Part shown: piece after piece, positions 1 to 5,349 of the stretch | How positions within the stretch are numbered: the stretch's first letter is position 1 | Layout: every line of letters begins with the position of its first letter | From: Psammoneis japonica | Lineage: Eukaryota | Assembly: GCA_008632985.1 (NCBI GenBank) | Contig: QPGO01000120.1 | Location: forward strand, 124,001 to 188,000 | Length of the DNA: 64,000 bases | Direction: 5' to 3' | The notes under the pieces: model-generated | Seen by the model: the letters and a program-made list of their open reading frames with translations, nothing else | Told to the model about the DNA's origin: nothing | Databases searched by the model: none | Translations under genes and position numbers: made by a program

Positions 1-2381
1 CGCATCCAACACTATCCAGTCATCCAGCTCTTCCACAACATGGTAGACTTGAGAGCCAGCGGTCGAAAAACAGCTTGGTGCGTTCGAGAATGGACACTCG
101 GGCTGTCGACCGGTGCAAACTGCTGACCACACCACAACTGCAATGGATGGGACCATCCAAGACGCTGGAAACCCGTGCAAGGTTGGGAGTTTGCCCTGGC
201 GGTGTAGAGCTCAAGGGATGCTTGTGATCGGAGCAAAGCAAAAGTGCAGCGCCGTTTCCCAAAACATGGCGGCGAGCCAGAATGTGAATGGCTTGACCCG
301 TCCCAAGATTGATCGACGCGAAGTGGGCTCGTCTTCGACGTCCTCGTGACAATCATCCGCATCCAGGATCTCTGGATCGTAGAAATCGAAGCCACGACAT
401 GTGACACACGGAGGTGAGTCGTCGTTTGCGTCTTCAAAGTGTGCGTCATGTTCAAGGATGAGATCTGACTTTGTGTCGTCTGACAGCATGTCCGTCAAAT
501 TTGTGGGAGCGTCAAAGAACTCATCTGGATGCTTGACAGAGTGCAGCTTCAAGGCCGGAAACAACTCAACAGCCGGTGGTTCGTTTTCAAATGTAGAGAA
601 AGCGTTGGAGTGTTCGCAGAAGTCATCGGCGTCTTCGGGAGTGACAGTCTCAACCACGATGGGAGACACGACTGGATCCACAACTGAGGTGAGTGCAGGT
701 GGGCTCGTTTCGTTGCAAAGCACCTCCGTGCTAACGACTGCATCGCTCTCCCTCTCGGCCGAAGAAGCCAGAGCAACAATGATTGCAGCAGTGACAGGGT
801 CGGAAAAGAAATCCGGGTCGGCAACGGCATCCACAGCCGCGCACCACATTCCCGTGAAAACCAACTCGTTGGGGTCGGACTCATCTCCCTCTGGTTCCTT
901 GGCAGTCTGAGCTGGCGGACCCATGGGCACGCCACCATCCGGATCAGCAACGGAAGACAGATTCCCGGCTGGGGTTTCCTTGGGAGGATGCCTGTGGTCT
1001 TCGGTGTTTTCCACGGCAGAGTGCTTCTGGCAGATTCCAGGTTTTTGGCACCCTTCGCCTTGCACGTGGCACACCACTTCCACTCTTTGCCATTCTCATC
1101 CTTCTTTGTTTCTCCGTCAAATTTAATGCGCCAGGCAGTGATGGGTCTCCGCTTCTTCTTGGAAGGGTCGTCTGTGGGCGGCGGATTCGTGGGAGGATCG
1201 TCGCGCGGCGGTTTGGCATTGCACTTTGGGCACGTCTTCTTGGTGCACCCCTCAAGACCGCAACCATGACAGTGCTTCGTCTTCCCAGGGTTGTCCGTAG
1301 TCGAAAGATCACTCTCGGGCAGCTCAGTGACCAAAGCAGGCCACTCCCTGTCCTTCACGAGTTCATTGTGTTGCTCCTGAATCCACGCAATGATGCCGAC
1401 CGGTCCGAGCGTGTTGCAATCGCTGTCGGACGTGATGTCAGCAGGATTCTTGAGGCGGCACTTGCGTTCCATGGCCTTGACATCGTTGAGCTTGTTGTGG
1501 ACTCTCCGATTGAAGCATTCAGAGGACGCAGAGGAGATCTTGTGGAGTGGCTTGGAGCTTGTGTTCACCGGAAGCGCGCAGTTGGTCTGCACAATTTTTA
1601 CGATGTGAAGAGCTTCGGCAGCAAAGTCCGTGCAATCCTTGCTGGGACAGCCAGCCAAACTGAGGTCTTCTAGCTGCTTCTCAGCTGTCTCAATGTCCGT
1701 TAGAGCGCCAGCATTGCAAGCATCGAGAGCCATCATGAACAGAACAGATCCAGGGCAGTCTTGGCAGTCCTTGAGATGGTTGAACTTGGTCTCGATTTTC
1801 TCGCAAAAGGCATCAGTGATGCTTGAGTGAACAAGCAGCTGAGAGAGCCCGATGTCGTTGAGCTTGATCTCGTCGCACTTGGTGTCATCGGCAGCTGCTT
1901 TCCTGACCTTGCATTCATTCACGAGATCAGTCACCGTAAACTCGTGGAGATGTTCGAAGACATGTCGAACCTTGTCGTCGCTGTTCTTGACATGGCAGAA
2001 CGTCTGCTGACCGTGGGCTTCTGCTAGATCTCGAATGGTCTTGACGAAATGGTCCTTGTCAAGCTCGTTGATGGGACCGTCCGAAATCTCAAGTCGACCA
2101 TTGAACTTGGAAGTCATTGCGGAAGCTTGTTGATCGCGGAGAGATCGTTCCATCGAGTCGAGAGCCTTGGGATGACGGCGCTGAGAGGCAAACTGGCAGG
2201 TTCCATCATTGGATTGTTCACAGTTGTCGTCGAGTTTGGAGCCACCAATGTAAACCCCATGGGTTGGGTGAATTCCGCCACGCAACGGCTTGGTTGGAGG
2301 CGGAGGAGCGTTCGCTGCGGCGTCAGCGGCCATTGCATCGGCAAACGCCTTCGCCAGAACATCCGGGTCGATGGCAGCCAT
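1..2381 (-). mobile_element. Degenerate Ty1/copia (CoDi-like) LTR retrotransposon, gag region; continues off the left edge
   Basis: ORF 549..2381 has a zinc-knuckle-like CHGCGLEGCTKKTCPKC and a second motif KDENGKEWKWCATC that I recognise from diatom copia Gag, plus PGSVLFMMALDACN. Frameshift near 1040-1080 into ORF 211..1083. No pol domain or LTR could be delimited. Confidence 0.72.
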
Positions 2382-3197
2382 GACAGAGAGTGTGGCATGG
2401 GAGGTTCTTGTTAGAATGAAGACGAGAGAAGCGAGAGAGACTCAGCCATTTCCCGGGTTTGCTTCAAAATCAAAAACCAAAAGCGTCCGTGACGATGACT
2501 CGGTCAGGAGCTCTCGTCAACACGCAAATTGGTCTCCACAACCAGTCGAGATACAGTCCTGCAGCTGGTGGGATGGACAAGACCTCGGAGGTTGGCAGCA
2601 ATGTGAATGGCGACAGAGGTGAACAGACGCTTGTTCAAAGTCGTTGTCTAAAAATTGTGATGAATGTCGTTGTTTCTGTTTGAATCGATTTTGTGATGAG
2701 CCATTTATTTCGAAGAGAAAATCTGAGTCTGGGTTGCAGTCGTGAGATGCGACCAGAATGACGTTGAGTCATGGCTTGGATGAAACAAAAAATCAGGTGC
2801 ATTCTCCAATCCGCCTGTGGTCGTCTGCCGAATTGAAGAAGCACAATCTCGGCAGGGACTCGAAGCTCATGCAGCATCGCAAGGCTTGTTGGACAATTAA
2901 GAAACTGGGATTGCCGCCAGGTGATGTCAATCTCAAGCAGGCAGAAATGTTGTCAAAATGCAGTGAGCTCAAAAATGAAGCTCAAATTCAAAACCCGGAT
3001 TGGGAGAAGCTCGCGTCCGATGAGTGCAACAACAATCATTGCACGGGAGACTCGGCGAATCAAGATGGCAACCACTCAGTGAGGTGGCTGGTGGCACAAG
3101 TCTAAAATGGCTTTTATGTTCTGTGTTCTGTGTGAGACTTGGATCATCCACATTGAAATAAAACTGACAATCGCGAAGCAAATCGACTGGCATTGTT

Positions 3198-4499
3198 TCA
3201 AAACACAAAAACACGATGACACAAAGTGCAACAAAAGTGGTGCTGCTGTTTTTTTTGCTGATTGAAACTCACCGTTGGCGCCCTTGACCGCATCGCGTTG
3301 GCTTGTTCTGCAGTGGTGGCCAAGGCTGTCACGGACGTTTTGGGAAAGAATGGCCAAAACTCAAAAATGGGGTCTTGGTCGTCTTCGCTTGCAAGACAAT
3401 TCCATTCGTTTCCCTCGGCAACGCACTTCAACAACTCCGCAAGGCACTCCCAGCGACCAACGTTTCGAACCACGGCAACATCGGCCCCACAACGAGAAGC
3501 CCACTGGGCGCCCAAGCATCGAATGCTGTGGGACGTGTGTGGCAGTCCCAGTGGGCCACAAATGCATTCCCTGAGCTGCTTGTTCCAAGTCTGAGTTGAA
3601 ACGGTAAAAAATGCTGGAGCCTTCACCTTTTTTATTTCGTCTTCACCACGACAACGCCATTCCTTGAGTGTCCATGTCACAGGGTCATGCTTCAAGTTCT
3701 TTGGATTGTGACAAATGCGGACATGGTGAGGATTTCCAATGTTTGTTGGTTTCCCACCCTTCCAATTGTCAAAGCAAACATCCAAGCACCGAGGCGTCCC
3801 ATCCTTCAGCCAATTCGCAGTTGATGACGTAGGAGGTAGAGTGGTCTTGGATGCCAAGGGACAGTGTTCAGAAACATCTGATGCACGTCCAATGATGGAC
3901 AGCTGACCAAGCAGCCTTGACCAAATTCGAACCTTTCTCGTGTGGGAAAGGCCTGGTGTGCATCTCCAGAGCTGATCCCAAGCCATGGGCAGAAAAATCT
4001 CGGGATCAAAAGATTCGGCACGAGAAACATCATCTGCCTCTTCATGTGATTCCAACAGCTTTTTAATCTCAGCTGTGCGATTCAAACCCTTCAAGTGTGA
4101 AAACTCAATTGATGCACACGACAACAAATTGAGCTCGAGTGATGTCGTTCTGTGCTTCAAACTCCTGCCAGCAGGAACCCCGTCTCGCAAGCACTTCACA
4201 CAAGACAGAACAAGGCTTTCTCGGGGAGGCTCCAGCTTCTGCCTCATTGGAACAACCAATGGATTTGTGTGGCATTCCTCCGTCTTCTGAAACAATCCGT
4301 TCAGACATTGCGCGCGCGGATCATTCGGGAATTTCGCCTTCAAAAAGCACTCGAAATTGCTCTGGGTCCCAGCCCGAGCCTCATGCTTCCTGGGCTTGTG
4401 TTGGATGGAGTTCACGCATGCCCTCGTTTCTTGAAATGGAGGGTTTGATGACTCACATGCTTCAAGCTCTGGGCTTGAGTCCTGACTCAAAAATCCCAT
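3198..4499 (-). mobile_element. Tyrosine recombinase (Crypton/DIRS-type) remnant, catalytically inactivated
   Basis: Ordered YR motifs: IIGRASDV (Arg), NWKG (Lys), SHSIR (HxxR), VGRW (Trp), LLKCVAEG where the catalytic Tyr is expected (codon TGC at 3423-3425, minus strand). No RT/RNase H seen next to it. Confidence 0.8.
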
Positions 4500-5349
4500 T
4501 TCTCATCCGCAACGATGTGCGATAGAGCCCCATGTGCCCTTTCGGCTGTCACTGTCATTTCGGCGTCTCCACACACCATTGCCTTCAGAAACCATGCGGA
4601 GTTGATGCTGATGACCAACATGCAAACGCCTTTGCCCATTTTCATCACATGCGGAAGGGGCTCGGGCACCAAACCTTCCCTGGTGCCTCGCCTTTTTCTT
4701 CGGGCGCGCCATTCTCACACTGTTTTTGTGATGATGGAGACCCATCAGCACACACCACCCAGTGCATTCAGTCGCAGGGCCCCAACATGCCAGGGGCTGC
4801 GAACGGTTCCACGCAAACACCTTCAACATTCTCAACGGCAAAGCTGACGATTTAGTGAGAAGCCGAGCTTGAGCCGAGAAGGCCATTTCCGCCATCAAAA
4901 CCGTCAATCAACGGGGGTCAATGGCCAATCAATCAAGAAAACTGATGGACAGACTGCTCTATCTTAGTTAGAGAAGGCCTGCATGCAGCACGTGCAACAA
5001 TGCCAGCAGTGGCCCCCAAGTCCAATTTCGACCATTGAGCTCACAGAACATTTGCTTTTGCAAACTTTTTTACAGCATGTTCAAAAATTGCGTGATTTTG
5101 GACAGCTTTTTGTCGAGTTTCATTTTTGGCATGCCAGCACAAAATGTGCAGGACTCTACTTGCTCATTTTGGTGCAGCTCCATGCGGCAATCTCGAAGAT
5201 CCATCAGCAAACCAGCACATGCCGGTGCGTGAGAAACCACGATGGCGCAACAGTGGACTACGATTTGAAGCTTCTTCCAATTCGATGTTGACTGCAGCAT
5301 TGTTTCTACATGTGACAATGTCCCAAGATTGTGGCTTGTGTGCAAAACT

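Follow-up and report, generated by a model that had tools for sequence, protein, structure and literature searches.

Probable TpA-specific hypermutation, distinct from CpG decay, of mobile-element DNA in a diatom genome

The window analysed here is a 64-kb stretch of the Psammoneis japonica genome (contig QPGO01000120.1, positions 124,001 to 188,000 of the forward strand, numbered below from 1), in which host genes alternate with blocks that have lost almost every TpA dinucleotide (TA). We found that these blocks are probably mobile-element DNA of a diatom genome after a DNA-level, TpA-specific A:T>G:C hypermutation, a process distinct from the decay of CpG (CG). The loss is specific for TA, has a definite direction, acts on both strands, stops at sharp bounds, is independent of CpG loss and is biased towards TAY (Y, pyrimidine; R, purine).

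In the window as a whole, the observed/expected ratio (o/e) is 0.31 for TA, 0.68 for CG, 1.49 for TG and 1.45 for CA. A two-state hidden Markov model (HMM) run on TA positions separates seven depleted blocks, which sum to 32,587 bp, from seven host segments, which sum to 31,413 bp. TA o/e is 0.03-0.08 in the blocks, with TG and CA mostly at 1.6-2.0 (TG is 1.29 in a 724-bp block), whereas the host segments have TA at 0.51-0.69, CG at 0.95-1.04 and TG and CA at 1.03-1.33. Pooled, blocks and host come to 0.05 vs 0.56 for TA and to 1.79/1.69 vs 1.20/1.20 for TG/CA. Besides TA, CG is the sole other dinucleotide to fall, and the shifts of AT (0.84 vs 0.97) and GC (1.24 vs 1.03) are modest. The 13 internal block boundaries are sharp, TA density going from 2.3/kb to 45/kb within 100 bp. 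The host segments, with 1221 TA sites in 31,413 bp (38.9/kb, o/e 0.56) and 57.3 CG/kb, served as the baseline for TA survival and for the mass balance.

A sequence-only reading of this DNA had proposed that in 1-4900 TA is nearly gone while CG remains abundant, and the counts agree. This region has 29 TA (5.9/kb, o/e 0.103), a 6.6-fold deficit against host (Poisson P = 3e-48), and 275 CG (56.1/kb, o/e 0.83), a density that does not differ from that of host (P = 0.38); TG o/e is 1.34, CA o/e 1.43 and GC content 0.521. The TA-poor and CpG-keeping state was thus described correctly but its end was placed too early, since the CpG-keeping block reaches ~5417. The same reading took TA loss for a separate process and not a by-product of CpG loss. 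In agreement, the two losses do not scale together across nine sub-blocks (CG o/e ranges over 0.12-0.80 at TA o/e of 0-0.12), and homologues have Tyr where the window mostly has Cys or His (13 columns in Gag, five in a tyrosine recombinase). The genes and elements concerned are the following:

1-5417: TA-depleted, CpG-retaining block with two different mobile elements (37 TA, o/e 0.12; 292 CG, o/e 0.80; GC 0.518; 467 TG, 489 CA).
211-2441, minus strand: Gag-like gene with a zinc-knuckle region and one frameshift near 1046-1095 (frames 549-2441 and 211-1095; 38% identity to protein P0001).
2442-2936, minus strand: upstream non-coding part of the high-copy Gag element (TA o/e 0.12 in 2501-3000; copy number falls at ~2937).
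3198-4502, minus strand: putative tyrosine-recombinase (YR) gene of a second, lower-copy element, an open frame predicted to be catalytically dead (no Tyr in the window copy; 188 homologues).

The two adjacent elements in 1-5417 are one of high copy number and one of roughly ten copies. One public DNA sequencing run, and no RNA run, was listed as containing this DNA. In its contigs, summed contig depth is ~2200-7000 over 1-2936 and ~470-920 over 2937-5505, against ~60-75 for single-copy pieces, and it drops from 6981 in the bin 2570-2936 to 564 in the bin 2937-3303. Neither the Gag-like nor the YR open reading frame (ORF) matches Pfam directly at cut-off, so that their assignment, which had been made from the letters alone, stands through homologues that carry the identity and not through a family match of their own.

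The Gag ORF (549-2441 minus) has a single Tyr, 28 Cys and 21 His. It is the 610-aa ORF with one Tyr that had been singled out beforehand (630 aa from stop to stop, 610 from the first Met); the length is right, but the last ~145 aa are wrong-frame read-through and the conserved C-terminus lies in ORF 211-1095 minus, where the second frame aligns to residues 463-538 of P0002 and 438-507 of P0001. Two contigs of the public run have one extra base behind 1046, a site near the frameshift. The ORF is 38% identical over 441 aa to the 510-aa protein P0001 (E 8e-90), for which the search listed 37 proteins, P0001 included. Among the homologues, P0024 has a precomputed PF00098 match and P0031 stays below cut-off (18.4 vs 20.8 bits). 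The knuckle of P0001 is CX2CX4HX4C; that of the window (2441-1032 minus) reads C-X2-C-X4-C-X4-C, with Cys in place of the CCHC His, a change for which a single TA or CG conversion is insufficient. There is no LTR (long terminal repeat) pair inside the window, any pol would sit past the window start, and the label 'copia' for this element is unverified.

Gag homologues contain 1.3-5.5% Tyr. At the 13 columns where Tyr makes up at least 50% of at least 10 homologues, the window copy has 1 Tyr, 8 Cys, 1 His, 2 Ile and 1 Phe, and of the other conserved residue classes it retains about half to three quarters (L 17/28, K 14/22, G 11/19, C 6/8, W 3/3). Three motifs had been pointed out as sites of Tyr loss. 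In two of them the suggestion was right: AGCPSKD has Cys (TGT) at a column with Tyr in 18 of 30 homologues, and TNCALP has Cys (TGC) where 30 of 32 have Tyr. The third, SECFN, does not fall on a Tyr column (of 31 homologues, 9 have E, 8 F, 6 Y, 5 R and 2 H). For intact Gag relatives, Tyr content is the sole guide to TA content; in a search for their DNA, alignment A1 had no usable conserved stretch and alignment A2 gave 223 pattern matches, none of them confirmed. The Tyr>Cys signature was not found in close relatives of P0001, which points to a host of the P0001 family without the process.

The YR ORF has 188 homologues at E<=1e-3 in a representative library (best 1.4e-54), several of which carry Phage_integrase (P0066, 30.2 bits vs cut-off 27.1). 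Its 434 aa include no Tyr, a residue that makes up 3.4% of 47 homologues on average, and its residues at five conserved Tyr columns are C, C, H, H and R. Residue 360 is Cys where 98% of 45 homologues have Tyr, and R206, K248, H325 and R328 are retained. Since this column lies 32 residues past the retained HxxR, it is presumably that of the nucleophile, and we take ORF 3198-4502 for a tyrosine recombinase that is probably a dead member of its family. In 10 of 23 related YR loci, none of the 22 neighbouring ORFs carries a reverse transcriptase; for this reason the YR element may be a DNA transposon, and a Crypton-like DNA element appears as likely as a DIRS-like one.

Four of the 150 YR homologues listed (P0063, P0146, P0139 and P0133) are without any Tyr, and have C, H, H and H at the catalytic column and Cys or His at the other Tyr columns that they cover. 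As these separate database entries are just 25-35% identical to the window copy, the same scar would be present in other YR families. Many families, perhaps of several species, may be affected; the four proteins may also stem from this same genome. Among 23 related YR loci from metagenomes none has TA o/e <0.2 in the matched stretch (range 0.22-0.99), and TA-poverty thus seems not to be intrinsic to the YR family.

The direction of change was read by reverting one dinucleotide change at a time and recording which substitutions at conserved columns were restored to the consensus residue. In Gag (117 substitutions) this accounted for 19 changes as TA>TG, 3 as TA>CA and 12 as CpG decay (CG>TG/CA), with 6 for the three other A>G contexts together; in YR (37 substitutions) the corresponding numbers are 4, 3, 3 and 1. 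Ten of the 19 TA>TG changes in Gag are non-synonymous first-position changes after T (Thr>Ala five times, Ile>Val, Met>Val, Ser>Gly, Lys>Glu and Asn>Asp). Because these fall on conserved columns, and the YR nucleophile is lost too, no purifying filter on TA>TG is apparent. Selection against UpA in transcripts was considered and ruled out, as non-coding parts are depleted to the same degree, the two strands are equally affected and conserved residues are destroyed.

Both strands are affected, as 1-5417 has 467 TG and 489 CA, conserved Tyr columns show 10 Tyr>Cys and 3 Tyr>His (8 and 1 in Gag, 2 and 2 in YR), and paralogues alternate between CA and TG. The flanking bases matter as well. TA survival, taken as density relative to host, is 0.38 for YTAR, 0.20 where one strand reads TAY and 0.03 for RTAY in 1-5417, and 0.22, 0.053 and 0.004 respectively in the CG-poor blocks (chi-square P 3e-16). 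Tetramer counts in blocks and host agree with this (ATAT 0 vs 98, ATAC 2 vs 189, CTAA 29 vs 99). By our own arithmetic, with the host baseline assumed, the data fit a rate ~2-4 times higher for an A before a pyrimidine. The coding-strand A of TAY always has this favoured neighbour, which explains why Tyr>Cys exceeds Tyr>His; the bases before the three Tyr>His codons are C, A and T, a sample (n=3) too small to weigh the TAY model.

To compare TA with CpG loss, a second HMM was run on CG within the depleted blocks and gave nine sub-blocks of more than 500 bp; the comparison covers these and the 23 related YR loci of other genomes. The first block of the TA model (1-10669) is thereby divided at 5417, and the remaining, unstranded features are:

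5418-10669: TA- and CpG-depleted block with internal tandem repeats at 5367-6322 (o/e: TA 0.04, CG 0.22, TG 1.96, CA 1.79).
14072-17644: TA-depleted block with intermediate CpG (TA o/e 0.08, CG o/e 0.52).
25754-32269: TA- and CpG-depleted block (TA o/e 0.04, CG o/e 0.15-0.17; direct repeats 25736-25922 and 30310-30503).
38027-41638: TA- and CpG-depleted block (TA o/e 0.04, CG o/e 0.23; a repeat in common with 48429-49657).
43946-49657: TA-depleted block (43946-44701 has no TA in 756 bp and CG o/e 0.50; the remainder has TA o/e 0.03 and CG o/e 0.12).
52177-53957: TA- and CpG-depleted block with CpG-rich rims (3 TA, o/e 0.03; CG o/e 0.18 in the core).
55910-56633: short TA-depleted, CpG-intermediate block between two host genes (2 TA, o/e 0.05; CG o/e 0.58).
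53829-53957: example of a TA-free, CpG-rich rim at a block edge (others at 25754-25813, 38027-38112, 41480-41638 and 52177-52241).

Four sub-blocks keep CG, with CG/TA o/e of 0.80/0.12 in 1-5417, 0.58/0.05 in 55910-56633, 0.52/0.08 in 14072-17644 and 0.50/0 in 43946-44701. The five others have CG o/e of 0.12-0.22 and TA o/e of 0.03-0.04, which bears out the earlier remark that blocks 3-6 of the sequence-only reading had lost both dinucleotides. No CG-low segment with normal TA occurs among the 14 HMM segments (seven host, seven depleted). Residual TA amounts to 58 sites in 10,470 bp of CG-keeping sub-blocks and 54 in 21,618 bp of CG-poor ones (binomial P 3e-5). The same ORFs in which Tyr codons are erased still have Arg CGN codons, 14 in Gag and 18 in YR.

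The mass balance against host points the same way. Per kb, 1-5417 has gained 27.1 TG+CA and lost 32.1 TA and 3.4 CG, whereas the CG-low blocks have gained ~80 TG+CA and lost 36 TA and 48 CG; GC content peaks (0.518) where TA alone was converted. Expressed as log-losses (our arithmetic), TA and CG stand at ~-1.56 and ~-0.24 in 1-5417 and at ~-2.6 and ~-1.85 in the CG-low blocks. The two losses are therefore non-proportional, and either TA loss is front-loaded or it has levelled off where new TA from TG and CA makes up for what is lost. An order in which TA goes first and CpG later is suggested by the nested pattern of the sub-blocks (n = 9), not by a measured age.

The rims separate the two losses in space. 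Five of them, of 60-160 bp each and 499 bp in total, contain a single TA, against 19.4 predicted from host density (P 8e-8), and 52 CG (104/kb vs 57/kb in host); being TA-free yet CpG-rich, they mean that the TA-free domain overhangs the CpG-poor core. Most rims adjoin 5' ends of host ORFs, and the TA-free domain possibly reaches into promoter-proximal DNA of the host.

Evidence for action in place comes from private differences, that is, places in 1-5417 where every aligned contig differs from the window. The 20 best-supported among those listed comprise (contig to window) 5 TA->CA/TG, 11 CG->TG/CA and 4 other changes. The five sites where contigs have TA and the window CA or TG are 1310, 1320, 1329, 3755 and 4648. 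As private changes of both kinds occur in the window copy, both the TA and the CpG process act in place. Repeats within the window carry similar marks. In the pair 5367-5811 and 5883-6322, 47 of 62 mismatches in a 431-bp alignment are between one YpR dinucleotide and another, and 20 of these are CA/TG. The repeat pairs shared by block 38027-41638 and 48429-49657 are 71-83% identical by BLAST and 76-87% after realignment, with 9 and 18 CA/TG alternations. Of 1117 aligned sites in the near-identical duplicates 14926-16045 and 16047-17163, 2 are mismatched, and each of these is CG/TG. Depleted stretches are matched by contigs almost exactly, with 0-3 differences over 383-1348 bp at a depth of 58-75.

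Regarding the arrangement of these repeats, one copy of the direct repeat (38106-39247) begins ~80 bp in from the left border of its block, and the other (48429-49657) extends to the very last base of its own. Between the two blocks lie 2.3 kb of TA-normal DNA (41639-43945) with a weak glycosyltransferase-34-like ORF (42394-43446 minus), and 38027-41638 and 43946-49657 could be two copies or a single old element split by unmutated DNA. The N positions 16046 and 30752 lie between near-identical direct duplicates (30753-31264 and 31088-31615 are 95.7% identical) and are probably assembly joins or collapsed haplotypes.

The depleted blocks are also rich in open frames. We counted 172 ORFs of at least 90 aa, stop to stop, in their 32,587 bp (5.28/kb), against 82 in the 31,413 bp of host (2.61/kb), and 159 TAA+TAG on both strands against 1031 in the host segments. 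Since TA>TG/CA makes no in-frame stop and removes TAA and TAG, long open ORFs are no sign of youth. The description of these elements as young-looking cannot lean on them; high copy number and few indels support it better.

Taken as a mechanism, the A of 5'-TA-3' would be changed to G on either strand, faster in TAY, and the palindromic TA would end as TG or CA. The hypermutation would be limited to sharply bounded domains, made up of the elements and ~100 bp past the CpG-decayed core, and would remove roughly 80-95% of TA sites. Tyr codons would be destroyed (TAY>TGY/CAY), including that of the presumed YR nucleophile, and TAA/TAG stops would be removed and none made, so that dead copies would keep long open frames. 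The decay of CpG to TpG/CpA would be a separate process with another chemistry and a slower pace, which has hardly started in 1-5417 while the other blocks show it at a late stage. The chemistry may be a deamination of adenine to hypoxanthine, which has been proposed for Bigelowiella natans (B. natans), or a hydroxylation of thymine at TpA. We infer, in addition, a targeting signal, a role in defence, an origin of the CpG decay in 5-methylcytosine (5mC) and the order in time. A broader and much more tentative idea is that diatoms, perhaps SAR (stramenopile, alveolate and rhizarian) algae in general, may have a dedicated, chromatin-targeted defence that edits DNA and works as a 'reverse RIP' (RIP, repeat-induced point mutation). 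In mobile DNA that has just inserted, it would turn TpA into TpG/CpA on either strand, with TAY as the favoured context, early and near saturation, over a domain ~100 bp wider than that of later CpG loss, and would kill elements through their Tyr codons and TA-containing signals while ghost ORFs are left open.

Several points count against hypermutation of this kind. The evidence for it here is a footprint, with no de novo mutation observed, and the ancestral composition of the elements was replaced by the host-segment baseline, which is an assumption. Each copy of the Gag family may have lost its TA separately at its own site, or the loss may have happened in a master lineage that was still transposing. 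CpG decay has begun already in the CpG-rich copy 1-5417, with 11 CpG and 5 TA private changes, and the rank correlation of TA with CG over the nine sub-blocks (Spearman 0.6, P 0.09) is not significant. CA/TG alternations in CG-low blocks can be assigned to neither a TA nor a CG origin. The sequencing run that supplied the contigs is possibly the one behind the window assembly. In the CG-low sub-blocks none of 141 ORFs of at least 90 aa has a Pfam match at cut-off, which leaves their mobile identity without protein homology; sub-threshold matches of these ORFs to DUF659 (16 bits) and ODV-E18 (18 bits) were too weak and were disregarded. A mobile origin of the blocks other than 1-5417 is favoured by within-window repeats and modest multi-copy contig depth.

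An alternative that we consider unlikely, but the least so of those weighed here, is inherited TA-poverty: TpA pressure, or selection against TA, on a transposing master lineage would give copies born TA-poor, and the CpG contrast would reflect recent insertion. The high copy number of the Gag element (depth ~2200-7000 vs ~60-75) allows for shared TA-poor copies, as does the likeness among 2047 contigs compared (382 at least 99% alike, 415 at 95-99%). At Gag codon boundaries, synonymous CA is more enriched than TG (164 per 1000 codons for CA and 123 for TG, against 96 and 103 in host). This is a hint of a purifying filter, but the codon-phase comparison is without an ancestral baseline and inconsistent between the two ORFs. 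A master lineage would hardly be a YR copy without its presumed nucleophile or any Tyr, nor does such a lineage fit the ten non-synonymous TA>TG changes at conserved Gag columns. The window copy has five TA>CA/TG changes of its own, which reflect action in place, and non-coding parts and the rims outside the CpG-poor cores are TA-free too. It is very improbable that the change arose in RNA, by ADAR-like A-to-I editing of double-stranded element RNA at UpA that was then fixed by reverse transcription. The preference for a 5' U/T fits ADAR, according to the discussion of a recent preprint (10.64898/2026.01.13.699255). The Gag ORF leans the same way, with 8 Tyr>Cys and 1 Tyr>His, but TAY preference accounts for this excess, and Tyr>His does occur (once in Gag, twice in YR). 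TG and CA are balanced in 1-5417 (467 and 489), where sense-only editing would make a difference of ~150 by our arithmetic. In-place tandem and dispersed repeats alternate between CA and TG, rims and non-coding flanks are affected, and the YR element may be a DNA transposon, with no reverse transcriptase among the 22 neighbouring ORFs. Diatoms are not known to have ADAR.

Marginally less probable again is one coupled process, in which TA loss is tied to CpG methylation or decay, for example through a single enzyme that acts on all YpR steps at a fixed ratio. Both losses do yield TG/CA, every CG-low segment is TA-low too, and the preprint refers to ADAT2 enzymes with deaminase activity on A as well as on C (10.64898/2026.01.13.699255). 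However, 1-4900 combines host-level CpG density with a 6.6-fold TA deficit, the rims have 104 CG/kb with 1 TA in 499 bp, the log-losses are non-proportional, and the hypermutation described for B. natans in that preprint touched TpA alone. The least probable of all is an artefact, either base-calling or assembly error at modified TpA, or DNA from a TA-avoiding donor. The assembly is imperfect, with two N joins flanked by duplicated sequence. Against this stand the contigs of the public run that match depleted stretches almost exactly (0-3 differences; the run is perhaps not independent), the Tyr-free homologues with Cys or His at Tyr columns, which are separate database entries, and the coherence of the changes at codon level; nor does any relative among the 23 YR loci have such a composition. 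TpA-specific hypermutation of DNA remains the probable explanation.

The genes of the host segments are long uninterrupted ORFs. They comprise Tesmin/CXC, peptidase M16, a Cys/Met pyridoxal-phosphate (PLP) enzyme, a GPN-type ATP-binding protein, XPG with a chromodomain, MOSC and a nucleotide-sugar transferase. In this they are unlike the genes of B. natans, which are intron-rich. The host ORF 58765-60813 minus (682 aa) matches DUF5898 with 36.1 bits, and ORFs 20238-21722 minus (494 aa) and 12366-13811 minus (481 aa) match no family in the Pfam search. All nine homologues of the M16 peptidase that bear an organism name or a diatom project tag are diatoms (41-44% identity; the best other matches reach 52-55%), where we take the shortened names (Thal..., Detonu...) and the tag CCRYP to be those of diatoms. 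At 10644-11000 summed contig depth is 3306 and TA content is normal; to judge from loose contig ends at 10843 and 10931-10936, it may hold a short repeat of ~90 bp that is present in many copies and does not have the TA-free signature.

As the named homologues of the M16 peptidase are all diatoms, TpA hypermutation would be found in a second, distant lineage. A saturated footprint over half of 64 kb would extend the process to an ecologically dominant algal group and to transposons instead of viral inserts. It is separable from CpG decay in space and, as far as the order of events can be inferred, in time, and the extended TAY preference constrains the enzyme. In practice, gene finders will over-call in depleted blocks, and open frames in such repeats are no evidence of intact genes. 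Transposon proteins will escape profile searches, as the lack of Pfam matches for both window ORFs illustrates, and the ages of transposable elements calculated from total divergence will come out inflated. Tyr>Cys/His at conserved columns offers a simple diagnostic for the process.

Fungal RIP changes CpA to TpA, enriches TpA and AT and makes stop codons. Like RIP, the process described here would consist of transitions at particular dinucleotides, strike either strand and disable mobile DNA within regions that have sharp limits. The direction, however, is reversed: TpA disappears, stops are lost and GC goes up a little (0.518 in 1-5417). RIP itself is ruled out by the ~10-fold depletion of TpA and the scarcity of TAA+TAG (159 vs 1031 in host). 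ADAR and APOBEC act on RNA or single-stranded cDNA and leave a strand-specific footprint, and ADAR prefers a 5' U. The likeness lies in a deaminase-type hypermutation of mobile or viral sequences and the difference in both strands being equally affected here, non-transcribed flanks included. Sense-strand-only A>G editing is contradicted by the balance of TG and CA, by Tyr>His at three conserved columns and by the affected rims and flanks.

Deamination of 5mC at CpG yields the same products, TpG and CpA, and CpG decay is seen in the older blocks and in the 11 private changes of 1-5417. It differs in the substrate base, and 1-4900 has as much CpG per kb as host DNA but hardly any TA. As a sole cause CpG decay is ruled out, because CG stands at 56.1 vs 57.3/kb in 1-4900 and CpG depletion is confined to the five CG-low sub-blocks. 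Diatoms are described as methylating transposons via DNMT5a (PMC9998398), and a 5mC-driven decay of CpG is plausible here. In dinoflagellates, 5-hydroxymethyluracil (5hmU) is reported preferentially at TA and TC, where it silences transposons (PMC11572971). A TA-preferring thymine mark tied to transposon silencing suggests an alternative chemistry, T>C at TpA; in that article 5hmU is presented as an epigenetic mark and no mutational footprint is described.

The closest known case is that of B. natans, beyond which we found no report of a TpA footprint in diatoms or other lineages in full-text literature searches. Of the 302 nuclear mutations in its mutation-accumulation lines, 231 were located in two regions of integrated viral DNA, and 230 of these 231 were A>G/T>C, all of them on TpA (Mettrop et al., bioRxiv 10.64898/2026.01.13.699255). 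The preprint gives a rate of ~6e-7 per site per generation, with only some lines affected, reports TpA-poor coding sequences enriched in reverse transcriptase and DDE domains, and proposes an ADAT2-like deaminase as the enzyme; the words CpG, flanking, context and trinucleotide do not occur in its main text. As described there, the process resembles the present one in being a TpA-confined A:T>G:C change that gives TpG or CpA depending on the strand, sharply regional, aimed at non-host DNA and producing TpA-poor, TpG/CpA-rich clusters. There are also differences. B. natans is a chlorarachniophyte (rhizarian) and the present host a diatom (stramenopile); what is hit here are mobile elements with many copies, as opposed to the single-copy inserts of nucleocytoplasmic large DNA viruses (NCLDV) or virophages of the preprint; and depletion here is near saturation (o/e 0.03-0.12), against 0.45 in the NCLDV region there. 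The present case offers footprints alone where the B. natans lines gave a measured rate. In this sense, the process is best filed as one of a known kind, that of B. natans, and what is new here is the lineage, the class of target, the independence from CpG loss, the TAY preference and the rims.

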